From the IMG/VR virus record IMGVR_UViG_2648501334_000009, positions 1 to 41,524 of that record: a DNA stretch of 41,524 bases. One strand, written 5' to 3'. A program made the translations under genes and the position numbers. This document shows positions 1 to 41,524 of this stretch, piece after piece. The notes under the pieces are model-generated. The model ran no database searches, was not told the DNA's origin, and saw nothing but the letters and a program-made list of their open reading frames with translations. This DNA is from a virus (taxonomy: Duplodnaviria; Heunggongvirae; Uroviricota; Caudoviricetes). Positions within the stretch are counted from its first letter, which is position 1, and every line of letters begins with the position of its first letter.

Positions 1-270
<270 letters not shown>

Positions 271-1873: not shown

Positions 1874-2070
1874 TACTGGCTGCGACATTTTTGAATAAAA
1901 GCGTCGACATTTCGGCGCTCATAACGAACTACTTTTGCACTGAAACGAATTGGTGCCAGGATAGCCCGATGACGATGCTTAATATTCCACTCACATAGCG
2001 TTTTCTGTGTAATACCTAACTTTTGGCATACTTCATCCGGGGTGAGTAAATCGTCGGGTTTCTCGCTCAT
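1870..2070 (-). CDS. AlpA/excisionase-like helix-turn-helix DNA-binding protein
   Basis: 66-aa protein with the 'LLTPDEVCQKLGITQKTLCEW' HTH pattern typical of AlpA/Xis regulators; its start overlaps the helicase stop (ATGA), and its stop overlaps the integrase stop. Confidence 0.6.
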   Translation of the reverse strand: MSEKPDDLLTPDEVCQKLGITQKTLCEWNIKHRHRAILAPIRFSAKVVRYERRNVDAFIQKCRSQY

Positions 2071-4822: not shown

Positions 4823-5584
4823 TTAAGATGAAGCGTTCGCTATTTGAGCTTCATTAAATGTGAAACCGGCCTGTTTAAGGCGCTGGATTAAGCGAGGTAC
4901 AGTTTCTCGAACATGATCATTAAAGTTGAGATAAAGAATACCCGCAGCATCAGAAGGCTGTTCAAGGTGTTGCTTCTGCAAGATGACCACGTTACTGCGG
5001 CCGAGTGATGATAACAACATCCCCATTTCTAGAACTACATTTTGACGAGCCCTGGGCAGGGCTGCTTCTTGACCGTCTCTTTTGGAGTATCCCACATCAT
5101 CGGGAGTGAGAAGAACAATGCCGAAACGAGTCGCTGTCTGCCCTTGACCAATTTCACGCTCCAGTTCTTCAATTATCGTAAGTCCAGTACCACCTGTATT
5201 CTGCAAAATAAAATGATCAGGTAACCCAAGCTTATGAAGAATGAGCTCAAGCTGCTCTTTTGCTGCATGGTCGTGACCGTGAACGATGAAAATCTTTTTG
5301 GCTGGCTCTTGAACCGGGGCTGGCTGAACTCGTTGAGCTGGCGCGTTACCCAAGTGTTCATTAATAATGGCTTCAACCTCTGGTTTTGCCGCTTGTGAGC
5401 CTTGAATCAAAATCGTTCCGGTGTGGTAAAGCGTTATGATGGCACCATTACTTAAACGATAACAATCATGACCGGCTTTGTTTTCTTCTCCGGTAACATC
5501 AAATCCGGATTCGACTAAAAATTGACGAAAAGTTTCGACAGGGTGTGGGTATTTGAGAGCCATTTCATTGAGATCCTGCATCAT
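4823..5584 (-). CDS. Two-domain protein: N-terminal unknown domain plus C-terminal TIR-like (PF10137/Cap12-type) domain; candidate defence effector
   Basis: C-terminal motifs 'KKIFIVHGHD', 'FGIVLLTPDD' and 'RARQNVVLEMGMLLSSLGR' match my recollection of the TIR-like family consensus, with a conserved Glu in the ExG motif; AGGAAA ribosome-binding site; AT-rich 53-bp upstream spacer. Confidence 0.55.
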   Translation of the reverse strand: MMQDLNEMALKYPHPVETFRQFLVESGFDVTGEENKAGHDCYRLSNGAIITLYHTGTILIQGSQAAKPEVEAIINEHLGNAPAQRVQPAPVQEPAKKIFIVHGHDHAAKEQLELILHKLGLPDHFILQNTGGTGLTIIEELEREIGQGQTATRFGIVLLTPDDVGYSKRDGQEAALPRARQNVVLEMGMLLSSLGRSNVVILQKQHLEQPSDAAGILYLNFNDHVRETVPRLIQRLKQAGFTFNEAQIANASS

Positions 5585-5637: not shown

Positions 5638-7713
5638 CTAATCCTTACGGTAGTGGTACGCCTCAAAACCGCCAGCGTTCAGTGGGATATCGGGCGCCCA
5701 TTCGGGGTTAGTGGAGAGAAGCGCGGAAAGCACTTTATCGTTGAAATCTTCTGTGTCAGGTGCTTCGGTGATCACCTCGTCGTGTACCGTCAACACAATG
5801 CTGTAACCGGCATCTTCGATAAGCGGCATGTTTCCGGCCAGAACGTCGCGGGCGGCCGCCTGGGTGACGTTCTCCACCAGCTTTCCGCCGTAGGTTTTGA
5901 GTCGTTGCCATTTACGCGAATAAGAGTTAACACCCATATAGGTGATATTCCCTTTTTCGATAACCGGAGACGGGTAGCATACAGCGCGTCCGGATGGTAG
6001 CTGTATGCGCAGCCACGCGCCATCACGTCGGATTTTAAGATAACCGCAATACAATGTTTTTTGCGGTGTGGCGATTGCTGTGCGGACAGTGCGCTCCAGC
6101 TCGTACCAGAAATCGCAGGTCGCCGGGTGCGCCCTGCGCCACAGGCGCTTGAGCGAGTCACATGCGATGAATACACGCTCGGAAAGGCCAAAGGTCGACT
6201 TACGTTTAACCGATTCGTCGTACCAGCTTTTCGCCTCGCGGATAACATCGCGGGGAATGTTTGGCAGTGCGGCGTTCGCCAGCTCGTCGAGATCGAGACC
6301 GTAAACCAGAGCAAAAGTGATGAAAGCCGATACACCACCTCCATAACCCAGACCGAGTTCCATGACTTTACCGATCTGACGCATGTGTTTATCAACATCA
6401 TCTGGTGCAATATCGAAAGCTTTTGCATACGCCAGTTTATATAAGTCCGGACCCGTTCCGGCGTCGTACTCTCTGAATGCATTCAGTTTCCATTCTTCTC
6501 CCGCCAGCCATGCCAGCATACGGCCTTCAATGTTTGACAAGTCACTTACCACCAGTTTTTTGCCTGTTGGCGCGATAATGCAGCCACGTAACGCTGAACT
6601 GGTTAGTTCCATGATATTGTCAAACAGCAGGTCTGCACATCCGGCTTTCAGTGCTTCGATGCCTTCGTCTATTTGTTCCTGTTTTAGTGAAGGGCGGGGA
6701 AGGTTCTGGGGCTGGAATAGCCGTCCGGCCCAACGACCGGTACGTGACGCCCCGCAGAACTGTAGCGTACCGCGTAAGCGCCCGTCGTGGCTTACGCCTT
6801 TCATCAGTGCCTTGTATTTACTGGTGCTGGTAGTACTGGCTTGCAGGCGGATAGCCAGCAGTTCTTTCACGGCAGATGGTAAATCGGGGTCGGCAATACG
6901 ACGTTCCAGAGTACTGCGTTGCATGTCTGGTAGCTCCACACTGTAGGATTCAACAATGTGCTTAATCAACGCGTCCCGTTGTGTGGCTGCCTGCACTTCG
7001 CCATCAGTCATTTCCTGTGTACGCTTTGCCAGGCGCTTTTGCTCCTGGTCTACCGCTTCGATCGCAGCGCGCGCGAGTTGCATGTCCATGCAGACGCCCC
7101 GGTCGTTGATCTGCTGATCACGATGCCAGAGCGCCAGCTCTGTCCCCTGATAATTCCACTTCGGCAGACGTTTATAGACTTCGCGCATTGCCTCGATATC
7201 CAGTCCGGCGTAAGCAACAAAGCGCCGCCATTCTTCCGGGTGGGTTTTGCTGGTGGCACGGCGCAGTTTGCTGTTTTTCGGGCGGGGCTTACAGAACAGC
7301 TGGATCAGCGCTTTACCTTCTTTGTCCTTCGCTTTGTCTTGCGGGACGCCGAGTATTTCGCAGAGTTCCCCCAGAGACCCCGGGAGACCATGCGCCAGCG
7401 CCTGTACCATTGTGTCTCGCCAGCGTTTGGCACTACCTGCAACAACACATTGGGGAGTGTGCAGCAATGCATGGCGCAACATGGTGCGATCGAAATGGCT
7501 GTTGTGTGCATATATTAGTACGCTCTCATCGCTGAGAGCTGTCAGTAGTCGTGTCGGCAAGTTATAGTCTGTGGTTAAATCGTGTACGCTGACGGGGTCT
7601 TCGTCGATTGCCCATGCGAATAACATGATTTCGACTCCTTCTGCATAGACATGGGTGCCGTTTTTTATTGGGATTTCGCTGAAAGTTTCGAGGTCTAACC
7701 AAAGTTTTTGCAT
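5638..7713 (-). CDS. Family A DNA polymerase with N-terminal 3'-5' exonuclease domain
   Basis: Exo I motif 'LDLETFS' near the N-terminus; motif C '[10 protein letters not shown]' and '[13 protein letters not shown]' near the C-terminus. Start placed at the internal Met (MQKLW); the tracked ORF extends to 7755. Confidence 0.8.
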
Positions 7714-7745
7714 CAAGTAAGGACCCGTTGGATTTAATAAATAAA

Positions 7746-7768
7746 AAGCCGCCAAAATGGCGGCTTTT
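7746..7768. terminator. Hairpin terminator downstream of the SIR2 gene
   Basis: AAAGCCGCC-AAAAT-GGCGGCTTT flanked by A and T runs. Confidence 0.55.
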
Positions 7769-7789
7769 TATAACCGAAGTTAAGAATGC

Positions 7790-9292
7790 TTAATATGATA
7801 AATAATCATACAGGCATAAAAGTCGCCTGTATTGGGTATCAATTTTATGCCCTGGTTTTGTTAAATAATCTCGTAGTTGTTTCAATGAAATAGTATCGTT
7901 TAGTACGCAATACATAATCGTGTTAGCAACTTTATACTCTTTCGTTTCTTTTAGTATTTCATCAATAGACACAGCCTCACTCTTACATGTTTTAATTCGA
8001 GAAAGGTTACCAATGATTTTATCTAGCTGCCGTTTTCTGTATGTCTCGGTATTTTCTAGTTCAGGGCAGATAGAACTAAAAGCGTATATTGGAAAGTGTT
8101 CGCTATTAGCTATGGTTTGCTTATTCAGTAATGCGATAAGCTGAGAGTTTGCTTCGTCAACTATTTTAAAATAGTTCTGTATCATTTCAGATTTTGTTTG
8201 ATAAACATATTGTACGGTTCTTTCTGAACCAACAGCAATGACCATTTCATCATTGCGAAGTTCATCTAAATTTTCTGTAATTTTAACCTTTATCTCACCA
8301 CCACTTTTGATGGTACTCCAAACTTTTTGAACCTTTCTTATGTCCATTGCGGATACTGGCAAAACTAGTCCAGAGATGGCATCATATACAGCTTTGTAAT
8401 TGTTTGTTTTTATTTTGTTTATTCTTATGATAGACATGCCTTCTATATCTATGTCATGCTCCGTAATTTCAGTTGACATGCTGTCTTTTTCGTATTCAAC
8501 CAAAAGGAAATTATCTTTTATCCTTTTTGCAAGTTCGGTATTTAAGTCAACGTATGAGAATATGGTTTTTAATAAGTACTTAATGTTTTTATCGCTAATA
8601 CTATACCCTATAAATATGATAGGGTTGTGTATGAATATTGAGAGTAATTGAGCGCGAATTAACTCATATTTATTGTCGAAGTTTGCGTAGTCTTCACCTG
8701 TGATAATTATGTTGTTAGGATCACTAACACAGCCATGTATTTTGTAAACTGAACCGTATGGGTTACTTAAAAGAATGTTGTTACCAATCAGTGGGTTAAA
8801 TTCGAAGATATTCTCTACGAGTTGGTCGTAGTTTGTTGTAATGATGGAGCCTATGTTTTTTCTTGTTTTTATTAAGCTGTTTATTTCCTCCATCATTGAC
8901 TCTTTTATCTTTAGGTCTTTAAGTATTGAAGTTAAATAAATTTTGAATCGACTTAGTTTTTTTCCTTTTTTCATGTGCTCATAGAAAACATCATTGATGT
9001 CTTTGAACTTACCGTTACGATCTTCTGCCAGCTTTTTATTAAAAATATCTTCAAGTTTTGTAGCTAAGATATCATATCGATAGTCGTCACCTTCTAGGCT
9101 TTCAGCTTTCAAATCGTAGTAAAACTCAGCATTACCGGTTAGTTCCATTGCGACACTCAAAAGAAGACCATCCCAGCTAAATGAGTTTTCTAGATACCGT
9201 AGGCTAAATCCTGTTCCAATGAATAGAACAGGGTGGTTTTTATAGTGACTTACAAACTCTTGGATTTCCATACCGATTCTCAAAGTTGACAC
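7790..9292 (-). CDS. SIR2-domain protein (sirtuin-like NAD-binding fold) with an uncharacterised C-terminal domain; candidate anti-phage defence protein
   Basis: Motifs 'PVLFIGTGFS' (GxGxS loop), 'ITTNYDQLVE', 'VYKIHGCVSDP', 'IFIGYSISDKNIKYLL' align with the Thoeris ThsA SIR2 domain as I recall it; strongly AT-rich; GTG start with an AGAGG ribosome-binding site; own terminator. Confidence 0.7.
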   Translation of the reverse strand: MSTLRIGMEIQEFVSHYKNHPVLFIGTGFSLRYLENSFSWDGLLLSVAMELTGNAEFYYDLKAESLEGDDYRYDILATKLEDIFNKKLAEDRNGKFKDINDVFYEHMKKGKKLSRFKIYLTSILKDLKIKESMMEEINSLIKTRKNIGSIITTNYDQLVENIFEFNPLIGNNILLSNPYGSVYKIHGCVSDPNNIIITGEDYANFDNKYELIRAQLLSIFIHNPIIFIGYSISDKNIKYLLKTIFSYVDLNTELAKRIKDNFLLVEYEKDSMSTEITEHDIDIEGMSIIRINKIKTNNYKAVYDAISGLVLPVSAMDIRKVQKVWSTIKSGGEIKVKITENLDELRNDEMVIAVGSERTVQYVYQTKSEMIQNYFKIVDEANSQLIALLNKQTIANSEHFPIYAFSSICPELENTETYRKRQLDKIIGNLSRIKTCKSEAVSIDEILKETKEYKVANTIMYCVLNDTISLKQLRDYLTKPGHKIDTQYRRLLCLYDYLSY

Positions 9293-9382
9293 GTAATACC
9301 TCTATAAAAACAAATAGCCGTAAAAATTCCAATAGCTTTTTGGATCTCGCCCGGCGTGTAACCGGGCGTCTATGAAGAAGGG

Positions 9383-12332: not shown

Positions 12333-12415
12333 GCTGTTGCGAGTGCGCTTTCAGACATAAAAAAGCCCGTCACGTGAGGCGGGCAAAGACTACACACAGC
12401 AATTACATGGATGAT

Positions 12416-12610
12416 TCAGTTGGTATTGTGCGTACGTGGTACCACAAGGTTGAAGCGGACACGCCAGTGCGTTGCAATGGTATGCAGGAAAGCACCACAT
12501 CCAGGGCAGTGCTCATAACATTCGTTGATTTGGTATCGTTTTGGCTTTGGTGTCAGAAGCTGTGTTTGGCAAGCAGGGCATTCACCTTTGAGCGGTTTAT
12601 ACGTTTTCAC
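12416..12610 (-). CDS. Small zinc-ribbon protein
   Basis: 64 aa with CPAC...CPGC cysteine pairs; first gene leftward of the immunity region. Confidence 0.4.
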   Translation of the reverse strand: MKTYKPLKGECPACQTQLLTPKPKRYQINECYEHCPGCGAFLHTIATHWRVRFNLVVPRTHNTN

Positions 12611-12932
12611 GCCGTTTCCTCATTCAGTTCACTTTGGTGGTTCGGCGGCTTCGACTTGTATCAGTAGACAGTGCTTCGCCGCACCCCAAAGGGAACTTAC
12701 TGACCCGTATTGCCGACATCCTGTCCCGCCACGGTCCCGACGCATGGTTTAGAGTCGCGCCGTTCGACTTGTGGCTAAAGATACAATTTGAGTTGTATTG
12801 TGTAAACCACAAATGTGGTATTTTGTGGGGTGTGAATACTACTTTATTGATATTTAAGTGAATTTAATTTGTAAGACTTTACAAATGGGGTAAGGGAGGC
12901 TGTTACGCCTCCCGATATTTACGGTGGGAATA

Positions 12933-13556
12933 CTAACGTTTACGGCGGTAAATACGGTGTTCGATCATTACACCTATGATCTGTAAGTTCATATCTGCAC
13001 TACGAAAAATAGGGTAATCAGGATTTAGGGGGATTAATTCAAAGTCGTCGATGCCGATTCCTAATGGACGGTATTTTTTAAATGTAGCTTCGTGACCGTC
13101 GTTTTTGGCGACAACAAACTCCCCTGGTGCAGGACATAGATCAGGATCGATGATAACAATGTCTCCTTCTTTAAACTCTGGTTGCATGCTGTCGCCATCG
13201 ATACGTAATGCGAAGCATGTTTCTGGAATGTCAGAGTCTGCCAAAATATATTCAAATTCCCCTGTCAGATCTGTTATGTCTCTTGCTTCTGTAAGCTCTC
13301 CTGCCTGAACGTAACTTAATATAGGTATGCGTCTGGTACTTATCTCCGCGAGAGGCATAATATTTTTACCGTTCAGTAGCCAGTCTGGGCTACATTTCAA
13401 GGCCTTAGCCAGATCCAGAAGATTGCGTGGCTTTCTGGTTCGTCCGCTTTCGATGGATTCTATGGATTGTTGGCTAACCCCTGCAGAATTCGCTACTTCC
13501 ACTTGAGTCATTCCTAATTCCAAACGACGTGCTTTAAAACGGGCTGCGAGAGACAT
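12933..13556 (-). CDS. cI: CI-like prophage repressor (HTH plus S24 LexA-like peptidase domain)
   Basis: N-terminal HTH 'LGMTQVEVANSAGVSQQSIESIESG'; C-terminal Ser/Lys dyad region 'RIDGDSMQPEF...VVAKNDG'; start at the internal Met with a GAAGGA ribosome-binding site; divergent from cro. Confidence 0.85.
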   Translation of the reverse strand: MSLAARFKARRLELGMTQVEVANSAGVSQQSIESIESGRTRKPRNLLDLAKALKCSPDWLLNGKNIMPLAEISTRRIPILSYVQAGELTEARDITDLTGEFEYILADSDIPETCFALRIDGDSMQPEFKEGDIVIIDPDLCPAPGEFVVAKNDGHEATFKKYRPLGIGIDDFELIPLNPDYPIFRSADMNLQIIGVMIEHRIYRRKR

Positions 13557-13676
13557 GGGATTAGTCCTTCTGGGTTGTATTAATGTGTATCCCCACATTA
13601 AAAACAATTTTTGTTGTATTTGACAAACCTCATTTGTTGTTGCTAAATACCACTAAAATTGTATGAGGTGAAAGCA
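13557..13676. promoter_or_regulatory. cI-cro intergenic operator/promoter region
   Basis: 22-bp palindrome TTAATGTG-N6-CACATTAA at 13580..13601; TTGACA at 13620..13625 and TAAATA at 13644..13649 about 18 bp apart; GAGGTG ribosome-binding site before cro. Confidence 0.5.
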
Positions 13677-13889
13677 ATGACCTTAGCGACCCGAGTAAAA
13701 GAACGACGTAAAGAACTCAAAATGACGCAAGTTACGTTGGCTGAGCTCACAGGAGTGAGCCAGCAGGCAATAAACAGAATTGAAAGTGGTGTTATTGCTC
13801 GGCCACGTTATCTTCTTGAAATGTCTATAGCATTGGATTGCGACCCTAATTGGCTGTTGTATGGCTCACAAAACGATAAAAAGGCTTAA
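13677..13889 (+). CDS. cro: Cro-like HTH regulator
   Basis: HTH 'MTQVTLAELTGVSQQAINRIESG'; divergent from the repressor gene. Confidence 0.7.
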   Translation: MTLATRVKERRKELKMTQVTLAELTGVSQQAINRIESGVIARPRYLLEMSIALDCDPNWLLYGSQNDKKA

Positions 13890-13892
13890 CCC

Positions 13893-16085
13893 ATGTCCGA
13901 TAGCAAACCATGGGGAGCTACGCCTGATGAGTGGTTTCATTTCGACCTGGTATTGGGGAGAACTGATCATCTTCTCCCAGTTGTATGTAACCCCAGTGCG
14001 ACCATATCCCCTGATAGTAAACTGAAAGCGTTGGGTAAGACGCCGAGTCGCTATAACCGGGACCGCCAGGTCACCGGTATTGCTCAATGGACCGGGCATG
14101 TTGTTACTGAGCATGATTTTGCCCGCTGGTCGAATGAACCGGATTATGGCATCTGCGTGCGTACAGGCCATGGCTGGCTGGCGCTGGACTGTGATAGCGA
14201 AGATGAAGACATTCAGGCAGATATTCGCAAAACGCTTGTGCAACGTCTGGGTGAGTTGCCGCCGCGACGCTGGCGAGCAAACAGTAATAAGTGTCTGTAT
14301 CTGCTGGCCGTTGATGGTGATTTCCGTAAGCGTATCCATCGCCTGGCGGGGGATATGGGCATTATCGAGTTGCTGGCGAACGGGCAGCAGTTCGTTGCCT
14401 GCGGTACGCACAGCAGCGGCGCGCGTATTGAATGGGACGGCGGTTTGCCGGATGAACCTCCGGCTATTACTGGTGAGCAGCTTGAAACGCTGTGGCAGCG
14501 CCTGGCTGAACAACTCCCTGTGTCGGTAACCACCGAAGCGGGCAACACGAAGATGCGCGACCGATCAGCATTCACGCCCGGCGCGACGGATGATACAGCT
14601 GAATATCTTGATGCCAATGGCTGGACGCTGCTGGATGGCGCAAATGGTGAACGATATATCCGCTGTCCGTTTGAAGACGGCCACAGTAGCGGGGGCGATC
14701 CAACAAGCACAGTTTATTTTCCTGCGGGAACCGCGGGCTTTGAGCAGGGGCATTTTAAATGCCTGCATGCCAGTTGTGCGCATCGTGATGACGGAGATTT
14801 CCTTAATGCCATCGGGATCCGCAACGACGATTTCGAAGATCTGACCAGCACCGAAGTGGCGGAACCTTTACCGCTGCCTGCTTTCGAGCGTGATAAATGG
14901 GGGCGTATCGAGGCAACAATCAGCAACGCAGCCAAAGCAGTAGTACGCCCTGATTTTGTGGACATCGATATTCGCTTTGACCAGTTCCGCGACGAAATCA
15001 TGTTTGCCCCTGCAGGATCCGGACAATGGCGGGCATTCACTGATGCGGATTATGCGCGCCTACGCATCACGATGGAAAAGCGGGGATTTAAACCTGTTGG
15101 TCGTGAACTTATTCGCGATGTGGTGTTACTTGCAGCCGATGAACAACCATTCGATTCAGCGATCACCTGGCTGAACGGACTGGAGTGGGATGGCGTGCCG
15201 CGCATCGAATGTTTCTACCATACGCACTTCGGTACCGCCGACACGCCTTATACCCGTGCGGTGTCTATGTACATGTGGACCGCGTTGGCGGGGCGAGTAC
15301 TGGAGCCAGGCATCAAAGCGGATATGGTGCCGATCCTCGTTGGTCCGCAGGGCTGCGGTAAGTCTTCCGGAGTGGAGGCACTGAGCCCTGATCCTGCGTT
15401 TTTTACTGAAATCTCTTTTGCCGAAAAAGACGATGATCTCGCTCGAAAAATGCGTGGTCGGCTGGTGGCAGAGATTGGTGAACTGCGCGGACTTAATACC
15501 AAAGAGCTGGAGTCAATCAAAGCGTTTGTGACGCGTACTCACGAAAACTGGATCCCGAAATACCGGGAGTTCGCCACCCAGTTTCCTCGTCGCCTGGTGT
15601 TCGTTGGTACCACTAATGAGGACGAATTCCTTGCGGACAAGACTGGTAACCGTCGCTGGCTCCCCGTGGAAGTGTCGAAAGTCGACGTGAAAGCGATAAA
15701 AAGAGATCTCCTTTTACTTTGGGCTGAGGCTCGTGAGGTGTTTCAGCGTCTGGGGGGTATCCAGTTCCGTGAGGCTGAACAACTGGCAGCGAGTGTCCAT
15801 GAACAGTACACCATCAAGGATGCTTGGCTTGAAACGGTAGAGAAATGGCTCGACACGCCAGACCTGATGACTAATGAACTTCCGCGAAATTGCGAATTTT
15901 TACGCGCAAGTGATGTTTTGCGTGATGCGATTGGGCTAAATCCTGACCGCATCGGAAAACGCGAAGAAATGCGAATTAGTAATGTTTTGCAAAATTGCGG
16001 GTATAAGCGTGCCCAAAGGCGAATTGGGGGGAAAATGACTCGAATTTTTGAGGCGGTGTCCCAACCTGTACCAACCTCAAAATAG
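13893..16085 (+). CDS. Bifunctional primase/helicase-type replication protein (P4-alpha-like, P-loop NTPase)
   Basis: N-terminal primase-polymerase-like region; Walker A 'VGPQGCGKSS'; Walker B-like 'RLVFVGTTNE'. Confidence 0.75.
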   Translation: MSDSKPWGATPDEWFHFDLVLGRTDHLLPVVCNPSATISPDSKLKALGKTPSRYNRDRQVTGIAQWTGHVVTEHDFARWSNEPDYGICVRTGHGWLALDCDSEDEDIQADIRKTLVQRLGELPPRRWRANSNKCLYLLAVDGDFRKRIHRLAGDMGIIELLANGQQFVACGTHSSGARIEWDGGLPDEPPAITGEQLETLWQRLAEQLPVSVTTEAGNTKMRDRSAFTPGATDDTAEYLDANGWTLLDGANGERYIRCPFEDGHSSGGDPTSTVYFPAGTAGFEQGHFKCLHASCAHRDDGDFLNAIGIRNDDFEDLTSTEVAEPLPLPAFERDKWGRIEATISNAAKAVVRPDFVDIDIRFDQFRDEIMFAPAGSGQWRAFTDADYARLRITMEKRGFKPVGRELIRDVVLLAADEQPFDSAITWLNGLEWDGVPRIECFYHTHFGTADTPYTRAVSMYMWTALAGRVLEPGIKADMVPILVGPQGCGKSSGVEALSPDPAFFTEISFAEKDDDLARKMRGRLVAEIGELRGLNTKELESIKAFVTRTHENWIPKYREFATQFPRRLVFVGTTNEDEFLADKTGNRRWLPVEVSKVDVKAIKRDLLLLWAEAREVFQRLGGIQFREAEQLAASVHEQYTIKDAWLETVEKWLDTPDLMTNELPRNCEFLRASDVLRDAIGLNPDRIGKREEMRISNVLQNCGYKRAQRRIGGKMTRIFEAVSQPVPTSK

Positions 16086-16240
16086 AGGTTGGTACATTTT
16101 AACTAATTGAATTTAAAGGCCAGTACCAACTGTACCATCTGTACCAACCTAATTACTAAGAACCCCATATATATATATAAGTCGCTTGGGGAAAAGGTTT
16201 GAAAAGAGCTGGTACAGGTGGGTACAGGTTGGTACAGGCC
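16066..16240. repeat. Iteron array (candidate replication origin or protein-binding array)
   Basis: At least eight copies of the core TGTACC/GGTACA in both orientations; three tandem 10-bp repeats GGTACAGG(T/C)N at 16211, 16221, 16231; an ATATATATATA tract at 16168..16179; a 12-bp inverted repeat across the primase stop (TGTACCAACCTC/GAGGTTGGTACA). Confidence 0.5.
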
Positions 16241-16366
16241 GAACAAGGAATTTTTTGCACATAACAGCGTGTAATAAGCGAATCGGAACTGCGTTATCCA
16301 CACCCACGGATAAACAAACGTGGTTCTCAGAAAATTTTTTCGTAGCAAAACGTAGAGGTCAGAGCT

Positions 16367-16801
16367 ATGCGTAATATTCAACAGGTTTTAGAGCGCTGGG
16401 GTGGCTGGGCTGCCAATAGCAACACCACAGTGAGCTGGGCTCCAATAGCGGCGGGATTTAAAGGGCTGGTAGTCAGCAGCTCGCCTGGCAGGCTGAGTTG
16501 CTGTGACGACGATGGCCTGATTATCGATGCTTGCGTCTGTCGACTGCAGCAGGTCCGTAAGCCTGAGGAACTGGACGTCATTATGCTGTACTACGTCTAC
16601 GGGTTAAGCAAACGTGAGATAGGGCGGCGGCGTCGCTGTTCTGAAGGATTTATCCGCCAGCAGTTGCAGGTAGCTGAGGGATTCATTGAGGGGTGTCTCT
16701 GCATGCTGGGTGTGAGCCTTCAGATGGATCCTGAGGTCGAAATTCAAAGGGATGAAAAAAGTATTAGTGCGCTACGCAAAAACTGCGCTACGCTGGTATG
16801 A
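16367..16801 (+). CDS. Q: Late-gene antiterminator Q
   Basis: N-terminus 'MRNIQQVLERWGGWAAN' and the 'CCDDD' motif match my recollection of lambdoid Q (QuuD-like) proteins; sits upstream of the lysis cassette. Confidence 0.75.
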   Translation: MRNIQQVLERWGGWAANSNTTVSWAPIAAGFKGLVVSSSPGRLSCCDDDGLIIDACVCRLQQVRKPEELDVIMLYYVYGLSKREIGRRRRCSEGFIRQQLQVAEGFIEGCLCMLGVSLQMDPEVEIQRDEKSISALRKNCATLV

Positions 16802-16825
16802 GTTGAATTTCTGACCTCAACGAAG

Positions 16826-16850
16826 AGCTCCAAATCATTGGGGCTTTTTT
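16826..16850 (+). terminator. Candidate rho-independent terminator just after Q
   Basis: AGCTCC-AAATCATT-GGGGCT (one G-U pair) followed by TTTTTT. Confidence 0.4.
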
Positions 16851-34005: not shown

Positions 34006-34347
34006 ATGAGGGGTATTATTTTTCTGTTAGCTGTCTTTTCTGCGTGCAGCGCGTGGGCGGATGGCTTTACGGTTAAATGCGGTGGCTACACTATGGTTGC
34101 AAACCAGGGCGAGTTATCGACAATCAACGGTGAAAGAGTTACCTCTCAAAAAATCACCGAGCTTGGTACCAATGGTTTGAAAGTAGACATGGTGCTTATG
34201 CCTGCCAAAGACGGTAACAACTACGGCTTTGAATACATTCGTCGCCCTGGTACCGAAAAGCGTTTCCTGAACGTCCAGCTGCTGCAGAACAGCATGGACG
34301 CGCCGAAAATCATCGGGTCTTTCCCGTGTAAGAAAGTCTATGGCTAA
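34006..34347 (+). CDS. Secreted/periplasmic protein with N-terminal signal peptide
   Basis: Signal peptide MRGIIFLLAVFSACSAWA followed by a mature domain with paired cysteines; GGGGA ribosome-binding site. Confidence 0.5.
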   Translation: MRGIIFLLAVFSACSAWADGFTVKCGGYTMVANQGELSTINGERVTSQKITELGTNGLKVDMVLMPAKDGNNYGFEYIRRPGTEKRFLNVQLLQNSMDAPKIIGSFPCKKVYG

Positions 34348-34415
34348 ACTTTCTTTCTGGTTAGGAACTTGGATGAAATTTACATCTAATCTATCTGTCT
34401 GGTTTTACAAAGTTG

Positions 34416-34443
34416 TTGCTTGCAGCTAATACTTGTTTAAACT
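34416..34443 (+). promoter_or_regulatory. Candidate sigma70-like promoter for the tail-region cassette
   Basis: TTGCTT, 16 nt, TAAACT in an AT-rich 136-bp spacer upstream of 34484. Confidence 0.25.
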
Positions 34444-34483
34444 ACGTCGACTACAAAATGACTAAGAAGAGTAAAAGCACCTT

Positions 34484-35215
34484 ATGCCAGTAGCGCAACC
34501 AAAAACTGGAGAAGTCGTCGCTAAGCTTGGTCCATCCTTGGAAGCAGGAAGAATCTTGCTTCTTGACCTTGAAAAACAGAAGTTGTTGAGAGATGCCCGT
34601 GCTTTACCTATAAGGTATCAATCTCTAGCACTTGAAGGGCTGATTCTGTTGCTGGATGGCAAAGTGGAGCGAGGTATCGAGGCGATTGAGACATCTCTAG
34701 CCATATGCCCGACAGATCCTGTTACTTGGAACAATTATTCTAGCGCACTAAGCAACCTTGGGCTTTACTCTAAACGGCGAGAGTTGCTTACTCGGGCTCT
34801 CGACTACGACTTCCCCTGCATGGTCGAACATGCTTTAAATTTTGCGGCCTTCTGGGCTGATGGGGAGATTCTCGATATGGCTATCGCTAAGCTTGAGAAA
34901 TTTGGTCAAACTGAAAAAGAAAAGCATGTATCTGCATTGGAAACCGCTGTAGTTTTGAGCAACTTAGGCGGTCCAATGAGTGACGGTTTGAAAAAAGCTG
35001 CAGATGTATTGATGTACATTGTGGAAAGCGAATCACTCCGTGCTAAAACCTCCAGTCTGCTTACCGATGGTGAGGGTTATGGTTCTTTTTCTGTTGGCAT
35101 CGAAACTGAAGACGCAGAGTATCTTTCATATCTTAACGATAAGGTCGTTGATGAGATGATTGAAAGAGGTCTAGAAACGGGATGCAGTGTCGCTTACTTT
35201 GAGGCGGTGAACTGA
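34484..35215 (+). CDS. Hypothetical helical repeat (TPR-like) protein, first gene of an accessory cassette
   Basis: 243 aa, helix-rich with TPR-like segments; lower GC than the neighbours; preceded by AT-rich non-coding DNA. Confidence 0.45.
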   Translation: MPVAQPKTGEVVAKLGPSLEAGRILLLDLEKQKLLRDARALPIRYQSLALEGLILLLDGKVERGIEAIETSLAICPTDPVTWNNYSSALSNLGLYSKRRELLTRALDYDFPCMVEHALNFAAFWADGEILDMAIAKLEKFGQTEKEKHVSALETAVVLSNLGGPMSDGLKKAADVLMYIVESESLRAKTSSLLTDGEGYGSFSVGIETEDAEYLSYLNDKVVDEMIERGLETGCSVAYFEAVN

Positions 35216-35637
35216 TGCCTGTAGCGATTAACTGCTTTCTGGAGATGGCTAAAAGCTCTATTGAGAATAGCGGTGAACAGTGGACGCGTAATGCGATAAG
35301 TAGAGCGTATTATACGATGTATCATTCAGCGTTATTGCTCACGGATGGCTATATCCCAACTCAAGATGAGAAAGGGCAAAAGTTACCCGGTGGGGTACAT
35401 GCGAGGCTTTCTGAATATCTTTGCGGCGAGAATGCAGCTCTAGCACATAGTCTTGACCGAACTTCTGCCAAAAAGGTTGGGCTTAAGCTCAAAACCGCAC
35501 ATCACCGAAGAGTCATTGCTGATTATAATCTTGATAAGCACGTTAATCGGATTGATGCTTGTAGTACCATCAAGGATGCAGAGGATTTGCAGTCACTTAT
35601 TGCTGGTATGATTGATACCAAAAAAACTGCAAGTTAA
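35215..35637 (+). CDS. Hypothetical HEPN-like helical protein, second gene of the accessory cassette
   Basis: ATGA start/stop overlap with the upstream gene; 'AISRAYYTMYHSALLL' helix-hairpin resembles a HEPN N-terminus, but no clear Rx4-6H motif. Confidence 0.4.
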   Translation: MPVAINCFLEMAKSSIENSGEQWTRNAISRAYYTMYHSALLLTDGYIPTQDEKGQKLPGGVHARLSEYLCGENAALAHSLDRTSAKKVGLKLKTAHHRRVIADYNLDKHVNRIDACSTIKDAEDLQSLIAGMIDTKKTAS

Positions 35638-35656
35638 GCCTATTAAGTAATTAATA

Positions 35657-38005: not shown

Positions 38006-38682
38006 GCAAATACACCGAACTAATCACGAACTACCACGCCACCAAACCTAAATTTCTTGCGCATGTTGATCTGATGACCCGGCCACTTATTGATGTTGCG
38101 GCTGCCACCAGAGGGCTGATTACTGCATTTGATATTGACTCTGCGGTTGGTGTGCAACTTGACATTCTGGGATTGTGGATCGGACGTAGCCGTGTTGTCA
38201 GCCAGCCTATCTCAGGTGTCTATTTCAGCTGGGATACCGACGGGCTTGGATATGATCAGGGGGTATGGCAGGGACCATACGATCCTGATTCCGGATACAT
38301 GTACCTCAGCGATGAAACTTATCGTGTCATTCTTAAAGCGAAGATTGCGATTAATAACTGGGATGGACGGAATGATTCGCTTCCGGCAATTCTTGACGCT
38401 GCAACAGCAGGATCCGGGCTGCGAATGCAGATAGTCGATAACCAGGACATGACGATATCGGTCTGGGTCTTTCCTGATACTGATATTTCAGATGTATCGC
38501 GTGAGTTAATTGCGGCAATTAAACAGGGGTATCTCACAGTAAAAGCCGCCGGGGTATGGGCGGGTGGCATTGAAACACCTTCGGTGGAAACCCCATCGGA
38601 AGGCTCAAAATTTTTTGGTTTTGATATGGATAACGAATTCATCAGTGGTTTTGATGTAGGAGCATGGGGAGTATTACTCTGA
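38002..38682 (+). CDS. Baseplate/tail protein I-like
   Basis: 226 aa immediately upstream of the tail fibre gene, translationally coupled. Confidence 0.5.
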
Positions 38683-39515
38683 TGGCGAAAAATGACTTTA
38701 AAGCGTTTGCAACGGATCGAAATGCCAATGTTATATCGCAGGAGGAATGGGAAGCGTTGCCCGCGCTTTTATCCGGATTTACAGCAGGGAAAGCCTCCAG
38801 TGCGCAAGTCAATAAGGTTATTCGGCAGGCCAGCTTTATTGCTGCAGCTCTGGCCCAGTTTGTAAGTGATAAAACGCAACGGGATGTGCTTGATAATGGT
38901 GATCTGCCCGGTTTTGTTGAATTGCTGGGATCGGGGTTTGCTGTTGAATACCTGAGCCGCAAGAATCCGTTTGGCGATATCAAATCGGATGGCACGGTGA
39001 AAACAGCTCTCGAAAACCTTGGTTTGGGAGAAGGCTCTGCATTACCTGTTGGTGTGCCTGTTCCATGGCCTTCAGTCACACCGCCAACAGGCTGGCTGAA
39101 ATGCAACGGTGCGGCTTTTTCTCCTGAAGAATACCCGGAACTGGCAAAGGCTTACCCGACAAATAAATTGCCTGATTTACGTGGTGAGTTCATTCGTGGC
39201 TGGGATGATGGAAGAGGGATTGATACTAACCGTAGCTTGCTTTCGTCACAGGGAGATACCATTCGGAATATAACAGGATTTATAAATGAAGTTAAAGGCA
39301 CCATTGATACAGCAACTTTCAGGTTACAGACTGGTACTGGTGCTTTTGCCTTAGCATCTCAAGCTACGCGAAATATCTATAATAACCTAGGCACATATGA
39401 AACAAAAAATACCCCTTACACAGGATTCAGTTTTGATGCATCCAGGGTTGTACCAACAGCATCAGAGAATCGCCCTCGAAACATTGCATTTAACTATATT
39501 GTGAGAGCAGCATAA
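38682..39515 (+). CDS. Tail fibre protein with tail-collar-like domain
   Basis: '[31 protein letters not shown]' collar-type motif; followed by a tail fibre assembly gene. Confidence 0.7.
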
Positions 39516-40117
39516 TGGATAAAGCAATATTAAATAGTGAGCTTATTGCTACAAAGTCGGGGGATATTACCGTTTATAACTATGATAGTGAGACGCAGGA
39601 ATATATTTCAGCTTCAACTGAATATCTTGCCATTGGTGTCGGTATTCCTGCATATTCCTGTTTAGATGCTCCAGGTGCCTACAAAGCTGGTTATGCAATC
39701 TGCCGCTCTGCAGATTTTAACTCATGGGAATATGTAACAGACCATCGCGGTGAAATCATCTATAACACCGAAACAGGAGAATCAAAAGAAATCACAGCTC
39801 CGGGTGATTACCCTGATAATACAACCACTATCGCCCCGTTAACGCCATACGATAAATGGGATGGTGAGAAATGGGTGACGGATACCGAAGCACAGCATAG
39901 CGCCGCAGTAGATGCAGCAGAAGCACAGCGCCAGTCACTGATTGATACTGCAATGGCTTCAATCAGTCTGATTCAGCTGAAATTGCAGGCCGGACGTAAA
40001 CTGACGCAGGCAGAAACAACCAGCCTTAACGCTGTGCTGGATTACATTGACGCGGTGACGGCAACAGATACCAGCACCGCGCCGGATGTCATCTGGCCTG
40101 AACTGCCGGAGGCGTAG
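39515..40117 (+). CDS. Tail fibre assembly protein (Tfa)
   Basis: 200 aa; conserved C-terminal region ending 'DVIWPELPEA', shared with the oppositely oriented copy. Confidence 0.7.
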   Translation: MDKAILNSELIATKSGDITVYNYDSETQEYISASTEYLAIGVGIPAYSCLDAPGAYKAGYAICRSADFNSWEYVTDHRGEIIYNTETGESKEITAPGDYPDNTTTIAPLTPYDKWDGEKWVTDTEAQHSAAVDAAEAQRQSLIDTAMASISLIQLKLQAGRKLTQAETTSLNAVLDYIDAVTATDTSTAPDVIWPELPEA

Positions 40118-40529
40118 GCCATTCAATATCTGGCGCACTGGCGGTATCGACCAGCTCCAGTGCGTCCAGATAATCCAGCCACAAATTATATTGTGCCAGT
40201 TCCTCACCTTTCAGACGACCAATAGCTGCTTTACCAGGCCATTGCTTACCGTTCATATAATCGTTGGCCTGATTAATCAGTTGCTGCTTTTCCAGTTCGG
40301 CTGCAGCAATCTGTTCCTCATGTGTTGGTGGTGGAATTTCAGACCATGCAGGAAAACCATTTTCTCCAGCGATACGGATTTTTCCTTTCGGCGGTAATCC
40401 GGAAAACTCAATATACACTTGCTCATCAACTTCAACAGCATCATCTGGCCATGAGTCAGCTTGAGTGTAATCCTCTTTCATCTCCAGCGGATAGAAAGAG
40501 TTTGTAGTCGCGGAATATATGTAATTCAT
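40089..40529 (-). CDS. Alternative tail fibre assembly protein (Tfa'), inverted orientation
   Basis: 146 aa; C-terminus 'DIEWPTPPAVQAR' parallels the plus-strand Tfa; convergent arrangement typical of invertible G/P/C segments. Confidence 0.65.
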   Translation of the reverse strand: MNYIYSATTNSFYPLEMKEDYTQADSWPDDAVEVDEQVYIEFSGLPPKGKIRIAGENGFPAWSEIPPPTHEEQIAAAELEKQQLINQANDYMNGKQWPGKAAIGRLKGEELAQYNLWLDYLDALELVDTASAPDIEWPTPPAVQAR

Positions 40530-40550
40530 TTTTCACTCCATATAGCTAAA

Positions 40551-40943
40551 TTAACAGCCTAACGCTAAAAATGAAGCGCCGAGGCCAGGAGTACTGGCTC
40601 TGGATATAAATTTAACCGGGTCGGGACTAAAACCTGCACAGGCAATATAACCAACAGCCCCGCTATCTGGTGTGTAGTCTTGTGAGACCAAAACACGCAG
40701 ACATCTGTTTGGAAATGCAATCGGGAAATGGGTTACTACATCCTGTGCAATGCCTGGTGCGCCGATTGAGCCCCACTGAAGAATAAAACCTGATGGTAAT
40801 TTTTGATATCCAGTACCTGAAACAGAAAGCGTGAAGCTACCCATATCAGGTATCTGATTCGCCCCTGTCCCTACATTCCTTTTAGCCGCTTCTCCCAAAC
40901 CAACATTTATGAAAATGCAGAAATAACGAGCAAATGGCATCAT
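40551..40943 (-). CDS. Alternative tail fibre C-terminal segment, currently uncoupled from the fibre 5' part
   Basis: '[12 protein letters not shown]' parallels 'GFINEVKG' in the expressed fibre; lies between Tfa' and the invertase gene. Confidence 0.55.
40888..40913. promoter_or_regulatory. hix/gix/pix-like crossover site for the invertase
   Basis: TTCTCCCAAACCAACATTTATGAAAA resembles the 26-bp hix/gix consensus as I recall it (TTCTTGAAAACCAAGGTTTTTGATAA); directly upstream of the invertase gene. Confidence 0.5.
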
Positions 40944-40969
40944 TCCTGCTTTTGTCAGGGGGCGCTACC

Positions 40970-41524
40970 ATGCTTATTGGCTATGTACGCGTATCAACAA
41001 ATGACCAGAATACCGATCTACAACGTAATGCGTTGAACTGTGCAGGATGCGAGCTGATTTTTGAAGACAAGATAAGCGGTACAAAGTCCGAAAGGCCGGG
41101 ACTGAAAAAACTGCTCAGGACATTATCGGCAGGTGACACTCTGGTTGTCTGGAAGCTGGATCGGCTGGGGCGTAGTATGCGGCATCTGGTCATTCTGGTT
41201 GAGGAGTTGCGCGAACGTGGCGTTAATTTTCGCAGCCTGACGGATGCTATTGATACCAGCACACCGATGGGGCGTTTTTTCTTTCATGTGATGGGGGCCC
41301 TGGCTGAAATGGAACGAGAACTGATTGTTGAACGAACAAAAGCTGGACTGGAAGTTGCTCGCGCACAGGGACGAATTGGTGGACGTCGTCCCAAACTTAC
41401 ACCAGAACAATGGGCGCAGGCCGGGCGACTAATTGCATCAGGAGTTCCTCGCCAGAAGGTGGCGATCATTTATGATGTTGGCGTATCGACTTTGTATAAG
41501 AAGTTTCCGGTCGGAGATAAATGA
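40970..41524 (+). CDS. Serine recombinase, DNA invertase of the Pin/Gin/Hin/Cin family
   Basis: 'MLIGYVRVSTNDQNTDLQRNAL' with catalytic Ser; 'LVVWKLDRLGRS'; C-terminal HTH; near-identical to Pin/Hin as I recall them; AGGGGG ribosome-binding site. Confidence 0.9.
   Translation: MLIGYVRVSTNDQNTDLQRNALNCAGCELIFEDKISGTKSERPGLKKLLRTLSAGDTLVVWKLDRLGRSMRHLVILVEELRERGVNFRSLTDAIDTSTPMGRFFFHVMGALAEMERELIVERTKAGLEVARAQGRIGGRRPKLTPEQWAQAGRLIASGVPRQKVAIIYDVGVSTLYKKFPVGDK

Follow-up and report, generated by a model that had tools for sequence, protein, structure and literature searches.

An apparently intact Pin-type tail-fibre switch with two canonical crossover sites in an E. coli-type myovirus prophage

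The tail-fibre locus at the end of IMG/VR virus record IMGVR_UViG_2648501334_000009, whose whole 41,524-nucleotide stretch was analysed and is called the window here, raises the question of whether its inversion switch has one usable crossover site or two. The first-pass annotation described positions 39270-40970 as a Pin/Gin-type invertible host-range switch with only one clearly intact crossover site, near pin. The general reading holds: the locus is a host-range switch of this type with an adjacent serine invertase. The claim of a single site does not, because a canonical partner with an inverted core lies at 39007..39032. The locus is very probably a canonical two-site inversion switch of the Hin/Gin/Cin/Pin family, homologous to the P segment of e14, and thus of a type that is already known.

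The gene layout proposed earlier, with an invertase gene, convergent tfa genes and an alternative fibre end on the opposite strand, was confirmed by open reading frames and Pfam domains (Table 1). The longest fibre ORF starts at 38664, while RefSeq annotations of relatives correspond to a start at 38682, an ATG that shares bases with the stop codon of the DUF2612 baseplate gene upstream. The constant stretch up to 39033 is 99.3% identical to E. coli 23CRST009 and 97.6% identical to BH100N. The expressed variable end (Sv) shares 100/160 residues (63%) with the C-terminal part of K-12 StfE, and the Tfa that follows shares 179/201 (89%) with K-12 TfaE. On the opposite strand, Tfa' shares 61/97 residues with K-12 TfaP; the two tfa genes converge and overlap by 29 nt. 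In the present orientation the silent fibre end (Sv') forms part of a 130-aa ORF (40551..40943, minus strand) with a short leader of 18 residues, an architecture that matches e14 StfE2. The stop codon of pin is the last codon of the window. An NCBIfam search returned no specific model for Pin or the fibre parts, every match being under the curated cut-offs. A simple promoter/terminator scan gave no convincing sigma-70 promoter for pin and nothing convincing for the 130-aa ORF. The window is collinear with myovirus vB_EcoM-611R5 and is related to SEN34, and the prophage adjoins yfhH in relatives. The carrier is apparently a complete SEN34-/vB_EcoM-611R5-like myovirus prophage of E. coli type.

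Table 1. Positions of the tail-fibre switch features in the window.
Feature	Position	Strand	Basis
Tail-fibre gene	38664/38682..39515	+	Phage Tail Collar domain
Constant N-terminal part (Sc) of fibre gene	38664..39006	+	ORF list, nucleotide comparison with relatives
Left crossover site (pixL-type)	39007..39032	-	Inverted repeat, family-consensus scan, e14 identity
Expressed variable fibre C-terminus (Sv), StfE-type	39033..39515	+	Pfam Collar E=2.5e-14
Tfa, TfaE homologue of expressed cassette, 200 aa	39515..40117	+	Pfam Caudo_TAP E=4.6e-32
Tfa' (TfaP-like), silent cassette, 146 aa	40089..40529	-	Pfam Caudo_TAP E=2.6e-37
Silent alternative fibre C-terminus (Sv', gp53-like)	40551..40889	-	Pfam Gp53-like_C E=3.7e-15
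Right crossover site (pixR-type), pin-proximal	40890..40915	+	Unique exact match, family-consensus scan, e14 comparison
pin, serine DNA invertase, 184 aa	40970..41524	+	Pfam Resolvase E=3.4e-51, HTH_7 E=3.6e-14
Fis-dependent recombinational enhancer, expected position	40985..41060	.	Inferred by homology, 5' end of pin

A scan of the 41.5 kb window with a family consensus that had been verified on the sites of D108, P1 and e14 recovered the left and right sites and no others, with 0 expected by chance. The right site reads TTCTCCCAAACC AA CATTTATGAAAA, with the core AA at 40902-40903; its 26-mer, TTCTCCCAAACCAACATTTATGAAAA, occurs once in the window. The good site of the first-pass annotation therefore exists, with its coordinates shifted by two bases from 40888..40913 to those in Table 1. 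The left site, on the minus strand, reads TTCTCCCAAACC AA GGTTTTCGAGAG and has its core at 39019-39020, which is TT on the plus strand. It encodes ALENLGLGE of the fibre, codons 115-123 of the 283-aa ORF; in Stf-type fibres, the conserved LGLGE codons are where such crossover sites are placed.

When compared in inverted orientation the two sites agree at 20/26 positions, and no other stretch of the window matches the right site as well. The inner 14 nt (half-site plus core) are identical and the cores are TT and AA on the plus strand. The top inverted repeat of the region likewise pairs 39014-39033 with 40889-40908. Over 26/26 positions the left site has the sequence of its counterpart in K-12 e14, the left pix site, and 39019..39034 matches the published e14 inverted repeat TTGGTTTGGGAGAAGG at 16/16. 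The right site matches its e14 counterpart at 25/26, and 40888..40903 matches the published repeat (pair TTGGTTTGGGAGAAGG / CCTTCTCCCAAACCAA) at 15/16. With one mismatch to the family consensus against three, the overlooked left site is the better of the two, and the right site that had been called good is the more divergent. All four half-sites carry AAA at positions 6-4 and CC, CC, CC or TG at positions 3,2, in agreement with half-site rules that are those of Gin rather than Pin: A or T at 6-4 and, at 3,2, one of the four dinucleotides out of 16 that work (CC, CG, GG or TG). The locus thus has two 26-bp, imperfectly palindromic sites that are inverted relative to each other and share their 2-bp core, as in the Hin/Gin/Cin/Pin family.

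Inversion was examined in silico and in homologous prophages. Flipping 39019..40903 joins Sc to Sv' in the same reading frame and yields a fibre of 238 aa. Since the segment starts at the left site, the variable part of the fibre begins right after the LGLGE motif and both forms of the fibre are complete. Among E. coli genomes, the flipped left junction was found with at least 80% query cover in 19 (best identity 99.7%) and the native left junction, at the same cover, in 54. The right junction occurs in the flipped form in 717 genomes and in the native form in 505; neither right-junction query had a match of at least 99% over its full length among E. coli complete genomes. BH100N and BH100, which are near-isogenic, have flanks that are 100% identical and a 1852-bp block that is inverted, with breakpoints inside the sites. 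In this pair a C/T marker of the inner half-site travels with the cassette while the outer half-sites stay fixed, which confines the exchange to the interval from site position 2 to position 15, in agreement with a cut at the central AA. RIVM_C029670 and RIVM_C036204 present the same picture, the inversion being their sole difference and its breakpoints again lying inside the sites. Clearly, homologous prophages occur in both orientations of the segment, with exchange at the sites.

Two other accounts of the locus were weighed against these results. On the first-pass reading the switch may be locked or decayed, or may use a divergent site, with the pin-proximal site intact and any partner degenerate at about 39277..39302, near the GFINEV codons. 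One half of that candidate (ATAAATG + AA) does resemble the outer half of the right site. However, the candidate agrees with the inverted right site at only 13/26 positions, no more than chance would give: an equal or higher score is reached at 262 positions of the window, 18 of which fall within the fibre gene and the invertible segment. In its second half-site, positions 3,2 are AC and positions 6-4 are TTA, against the family rules and not tolerated by Gin. The core AA of the candidate also runs in the same direction as that of the right site, so that the two form a direct repeat, and pairing them for inversion would leave non-complementary overhangs. Furthermore, every inversion breakpoint seen in relatives maps to the LGLGE site. 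The consensus scan identifies the real pair as 39007..39032 and 40890..40915; a well-conserved partner is thus present elsewhere, and a switch locked for want of a second site is exceedingly improbable. The left site lies about 270 bases upstream of the GFINEV candidate and 238 bp beyond the left edge of the region first described. If the locus were a shufflon with several sites, of the kind seen in Min of p15B or in multiple-inversion systems, additional cryptic sites would produce more than two fibre variants. Some relatives have different cassettes and half-site variants, and multi-site P2-like switches have been reported in E. coli. Against this, the whole window holds just two consensus-like sites, no third site of at least 17/26 was found inside the segment, and the sites enclose no more than two fibre ends and two tfa genes; there is hardly any chance that this account is right.

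A third account accepts both sites and concerns the one base by which the right site differs from that of K-12 e14. The G-to-A change at 40905 lies next to the core, at position 3 of the outer half-site, and gives TG at positions 3,2 instead of CG. It could slow, bias or disable switching of the window copy, as positions 3,2 set Gin specificity, 40905 lies in the region read by the invertase arm, and the equivalent position is G:C in every other family site examined. The A allele is also rare. The exact 26-mer had 0 matches in a one-genome-per-species set, and the allele made up 7/116 distinct sites in an IMG/VR sample that included loci fetched specifically for the A variant. On the other hand, TG is one of the four dinucleotides that Gin tolerates, a tolerance measured with the hyperactive Gin catalytic domain on symmetric sites and not with Pin, and just one of four half-sites is affected. 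Pin has the arm residues T123, L127, I136 and G137 in common with Gin, and V120, which replaces I120, is likewise found in the active K-12 PinE. An identical A-allele right site was found in 12 other contigs or loci of the IMG/VR and metagenome scan, all different prophages. Among them both arrangements occur, with either cassette type adjoining pin, and two (L007 and L009) carry the cassette pair of the window in the flipped state. The A allele was not found in any strictly isogenic pair. The 12 carriers support, but do not prove, that a site with this allele is competent, and impairment of the switch by this base appears very unlikely. Two further proposals are that the A allele tunes the rate or bias of inversion so that the prophage is preferentially in one fibre state, and that the 130-aa ORF, with its leader and gp53-like domain, is expressed in the lysogen and might act like e14 StfE2, which was reported in a 2025 paper to block adsorption of phage T2. 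If the latter were true the switch would also toggle a host-protective factor. Both proposals are unlikely.

Returning to the two-site Pin switch, the invertase is intact and has the features of its family: a small serine recombinase with an N-terminal resolvase domain, a catalytic serine (Ser9, in YVRVSTNDQ) and a C-terminal HTH. Pin is identical to K-12 PinE at 176/184 residues (96%), and it aligns over its full length with the Gin structures 3UJ3 and 4M6F (E=5e-93). Like Gin, it carries Q150, R153 and L154 (in QAGRL) and the basic residues K46, K47 and R50 (in RPGLKKLLR). In Hin, Q151, R154 and L155 and the basic residues 47, 48 and 51 contact Fis and the enhancer and are specific to Fis-dependent invertases; the two sets would correspond on the assumption of a one-residue offset in numbering.

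Some 96 bp from the centre of the right site, at 40991..41005, is a conserved block, GTATCAACAAATGAC; in the Hin system the proximal Fis site is about 100 bp away from hixL. The block is kept in P1 cin and D108 gin, third-codon positions included. The expected enhancer stretch, 40985..41060, differs at only 3-5 positions, all synonymous, from pinE of K-12 and from its counterpart in the BH100 prophage, and the 5' 230 nt of pin are nearly identical to both. The BH100 prophage demonstrably inverts. By a G-N13-C rule with 48-bp spacing, the block is a plausible first Fis site, and the second expected site is GC-rich by eye and not clear. By analogy with these systems, the 5' end of pin probably contains an enhancer and inversion is probably Fis-dependent.

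These features suggest how the switch would operate. Pin dimers would bind the two 26-bp sites, which would come together in a synapse with the Fis-bound enhancer near the start of pin. Cleavage of all four strands at the central dinucleotides (39019-20 and 40902-3), followed by rotation of one subunit pair by 180 degrees, would invert about 1.88 kb. The N-terminal 123 residues of the fibre would remain constant, and the C-terminal receptor-binding part would be exchanged together with its matching assembly chaperone. In the present state the phage would make the collar-type end with the TfaE-like chaperone, and in the flipped state the gp53-like end with the TfaP-like chaperone, so that a lysogen population would yield virions with two host ranges. 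The window copy is apparently intact and is predicted still to switch, with a presumed consequence for host range.

The import of this result beyond correct annotation is small, as the locus is a textbook example of the e14 P-segment class of host-range switches, carried by a prophage that looks intact. The correction is that the invertible segment spans 39007..39032 to 40890..40915 and does not begin at about 39280. For host-range prediction or phage engineering, both receptor-binding ends and their chaperones should be counted as expressed in the population.

Among known systems, the G segment of Mu and D108 follows the same logic, with Sc, Sv-U, an inverted U'-Sv' and an invertase, Gin, that is 77% identical to Pin. 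Its 26-bp sites have an AAACC NN GGTTT centre, as in the window; however, the core is GA/TC rather than AA/TT, the segment is 3 kb and the fibre cassettes are unrelated. Cin of the P1 (and P7) C segment is 82% identical to Pin. A cix-like site of P1, TTCTCTTAAACCAAGGTTTAGGATTG, shares the AA core and is very similar to the inner half of pix; it was the one cix site recovered, as the P1 record used is broken at its origin and lacks the C segment on the upstream side of cin. P1 differs in having a cix site at the 3' end of cin, a larger segment and another phage type. Hin of the Salmonella enterica H segment belongs to the same family of Fis/enhancer-dependent serine invertases with 26-bp sites, and its enhancer, within the invertase gene, is at a distance of about 100 bp from the closest site. 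What Hin inverts is a promoter of flagellin genes, whereas Pin inverts a fibre coding cassette. Min of p15B and Rci of IncI plasmids act on more than two sites, in contrast to the two of the window, and Rci is a tyrosine recombinase while that of the window is a serine resolvase/invertase.

The closest system is the P segment of e14 in E. coli K-12, for which inversion has been documented experimentally. Its gene order, stfP-tfaP-tfaE-stfE-pinE, is that of the window, its pin likewise begins about 55-60 bp past the right site, and a conserved junction of 23 residues is common to both. The arrangement in the window is equivalent to the inverted (StfP2/StfE2) state of e14. StfP is unrelated to Sc of the window upstream of residue ~97, the gp53-like cassettes are only ~31-37% identical, and the e14 segment measures 1797 bp compared with ~1.88 kb. 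Moreover, e14 is a defective lambdoid element at icd, whereas the window comes from a complete-looking SEN34-like myovirus prophage. Given the collinearity of the window with vB_EcoM-611R5, and a prophage that abuts yfhH in relatives, its switch is a module of e14 type that resides in another phage rather than the e14 element proper.

The window carries a Pin-type tail-fibre switch, an ordinary and already known system. Open reading frames and domain matches bear out the gene layout described in the first-pass annotation, and the final codon of the window is the stop codon of the recombinase gene.

Coding sequences of the switch region
Feature	Coordinates	Strand	Match
Tail-fibre gene	38664 (or 38682)..39515		Phage Tail Collar domain, E=2.5e-14
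Tail-fibre assembly gene, 200 aa	39515..40117		Caudo_TAP
Second assembly gene, 146 aa, convergent	40089..40529	minus	Caudo_TAP
ORF with Gp53-like_C domain, 130 aa	40551..40943	minus	Gp53-like_C, E=3.7e-15
Serine recombinase (pin), 184 aa	40970..41524		Resolvase, E=3.4e-51; HTH_7

Only one clearly intact crossover site had been recognized, at 40888..40913. This site exists but lies 2 bases further right, where the 26-mer TTCTCCCAAACCAACATTTATGAAAA has its single occurrence in the window (40890..40915, the right or pin-proximal site). It is not alone. The left site at 39007..39032, which reads TTCTCCCAAACC AA GGTTTTCGAGAG on the minus strand, matches the right site at 20/26 positions and is its real partner, as several independent checks agree. 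No other position in the window matches as well, the runner-up scoring 17. The top inverted repeat within 38600..41100 pairs 39014-39033 with 40889-40908 (90% over 20 nt), and the window has exactly two copies of the 14-mer TTCTCCCAAACCAA, at 40890 (+) and 39019..39032 (-). On the plus strand the core is TT (39019-20) in the left site and AA (40902-3) in the right site, the opposite polarity that inversion requires. The window was also scanned with the degenerate family consensus TTMTCNNAAACCWWGGTTTNNGAKAA, which was checked on known sites of the family (D108 gix, P1 cix and e14 pix). At ≤3 mismatches only the left and right sites were found in 41.5 kb, with 1 and 3 mismatches, respectively, and no chance matches are expected (100 shuffles). 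The left site falls on the ALENLGLGE codons, residues 115-123 of a 283-aa ORF, 238 bp beyond the left edge of the region initially assigned to the switch.

The partner had been sought in the wrong place, near the GFINEV codons at 39277..39302, and that candidate was rejected. Compared with the reverse-complemented right site it agrees at 13/26 positions, with no improvement from shifts of up to 6 bases. Since 262 window positions score at least 13, including 18 within the fibre gene and segment, this resemblance is at chance level. Its plus-strand core, AA, has the polarity of the right-site core, so the two would form direct rather than inverted repeats. Positions 3,2 of its second half-site are AC and positions 6-4 are TTA, and the experimental specificity profile of Gin shows tolerance for neither (PMC3616721). 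The earlier observation thus holds for the layout and the right site but not for a lone intact site; likewise, its reading as a Pin-type fibre switch stands, while a one-site or locked switch does not, as a canonical left site is present.

Reversal of 39019..40903 in silico produced an in-frame 238-aa fibre ending in ...LALGC, with the 146-aa chaperone gene behind it. Junctions were then counted in 5,426 complete E. coli genomes with at least 80% of the query covered. The left junction (301-nt query) was flipped in 19 genomes (best identity 99.7%) and native in 54; the right junction was flipped in 717 and native in 505. The most direct evidence that inversion happens comes from near-isogenic strain pairs, whose prophage is 92-98% identical to the window over aligned parts of the switch region. 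In E. coli strains BH100N and BH100 the flanks (2532 and 2134 bp) are 100% identical, and a block of 1852 bp between them lies in opposite orientations. A C/T polymorphism at inner half-site position 1 moves with its cassette (a swappable fibre end and its tfa gene), and the outer half-sites, GGTTTTCGAGAG in the fibre gene and CGTTTATGAAAA beside pin, are unmoved. The crossover is thereby confined to the interval from site position 2 to position 15, which fits the central AA. The pair RIVM_C029670 and RIVM_C036204 differs by exactly the same inversion pattern. Their prophage is 99.97% identical to that of BH100N and is therefore the same element, not an independent case. E. coli 23CRST009 carries a close relative of the window with the switch in the flipped state; identity to the window is 99.3% as far as 39033, 97.4% for 39836..40903 (inverted) and 98.4% for pin.

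The right site carries a G to A change at 40905 that makes positions 3,2 of its outer half TG instead of CG, altering 1 of the 4 half-sites. This allele is rare. The exact site had 0 matches in 185,579 representative genomes (one genome per species) and was found elsewhere in 8 IMG/VR contigs and 4 metagenome contigs (L005-L012, L019-L022). Among the IMG/VR matches listed, pooled with the 8 A-allele loci, the counts are CG 108, CA 7 and GG 1. Gin recombines only CC, CG, GG or TG at these positions (PMC3616721), so the 40905 variant is within the tolerated range. In the 12 other carriers the cassette beside pin is collar-type in 9 and gp53-like, as in the window, in 3. L007 and L009 hold the same pair of cassettes as the window, but flipped, with AAKR(D/N)VGTG... 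joined to the constant N-terminal part of the fibre gene (Sc) and the other end of the pair beside pin. These arrangements support a competent A-allele right site, short of proof because the carriers are different prophages.

In carriers L006 (400-425), L022 (327-352), L008 (10409-10434) and L012 (3128-3153) the inner half of the left site is unlike that of the right site, with GGTATCGGAGAA or GGTTTAAGAGCA in place of GGTTTGGGAGAA, and the expressed cassette begins ..LGIGE or ..LGLRA. Variants of the half-site thus accompany particular cassettes. One viral contig, L042 (IMGVR_UViG_3300029071_000018), has two pin-proximal-type sites, 26-51 (-) and 1917-1942 (+), inverted and about 1.9 kb apart.

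The whole length of Pin can be aligned to Gin crystal-structure sequences (3UJ3 and 4M6F, E=5e-93), and the catalytic serine motif YVRVSTNDQ is present. Hin residues Q151, R154, L155 and basic residues 47, 48 and 51 are conserved only in Fis/enhancer-dependent invertases (PMC3798978). Their counterparts are present in Pin as Q150, R153, L154, K46, K47 and R50, apparently with a one-residue numbering offset. Gin specificity at positions 3,2 is set by arm residues I120, T123, L127, I136 and G137 (PMC3616721). Pin has V120, T123, L127, I136 and G137, as does K-12 PinE.

By analogy with the Hin, Gin and Cin systems, the enhancer is expected within the 5' end of pin. Against K-12 pinE, or the pin gene of the BH100 prophage, which inverts, this stretch shows just a few synonymous differences, and the block GTATCAACAAATGAC (40991..41005) is kept in cin and gin, third-codon positions included. 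This block is about 96 bp from the right-site centre; the corresponding distance in the native Hin arrangement is about 100 bp (PMC3798978). These features are in keeping with a putative enhancer inside the 5' end of pin, where the second Fis site was sought but could not be placed with confidence.

The window is collinear with temperate myovirus vB_EcoM-611R5, most of its length being about 95% identical, and is related to Salmonella phage SEN34. The collinearity indicates an e14-type module on a complete-looking prophage rather than e14 itself. In relatives, a single gene separates pin from the host gene yfhH downstream. An island of ~1.3 kb that separates the tail genes from the spike gene (34338..35653) is absent from vB_EcoM-611R5, the closest phage. 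Its two ORFs encode 243 aa with weak TPR matches (34484..35215) and 140 aa with a weak PADLOC HEPN_IX match (35215..35637, E=1.6e-4); the island is possibly a moron or a defence/toxin pair. A 253-aa TIR-like protein (4823..5584, minus strand) strongly matches PADLOC candidate defence family PDC-S35 (E=1.7e-109), and its vB_EcoM-611R5 homologue is annotated TIR-like. Nucleotide similarity to the closest phage is nil or weak over 7695..9349, which contains a 500-aa ORF (7790..9292, minus strand), and over 12412..16840, the immunity/early region with a 730-aa ORF (13893..16085).

The gp53-like silent cassette is part of the 130-aa ORF, whose start lies upstream of the right site and whose 18-residue leader is conserved with K-12 StfE. 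RefSeq labels its equivalent in relatives gp53-like protein, and a scan found no convincing promoter for it. StfE2 of e14, which blocks T2 adsorption according to a 2025 paper, has the same architecture.

The switch was also compared with the e14 region of K-12 MG1655 as reference. The e14 site inside stfP is 26/26 identical to the left site, and the pin-proximal site differs from the right site by the single base at 40905. The experimentally defined e14 inverted repeats, TTGGTTTGGGAGAAGG and CCTTCTCCCAAACCAA (PMC12529663), are located in the window at 39019..39034 (16/16) and 40888..40903 (15/16). PinE is identical to Pin at 176/184 residues, and TfaE is 89% identical to the 200-aa Tfa. The cassettes are also homologous, the expressed fibre end being StfE-type and the 146-aa Tfa TfaP-like. 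The present arrangement of the window is the counterpart of the 'inverted' (StfP2/StfE2) state of e14.
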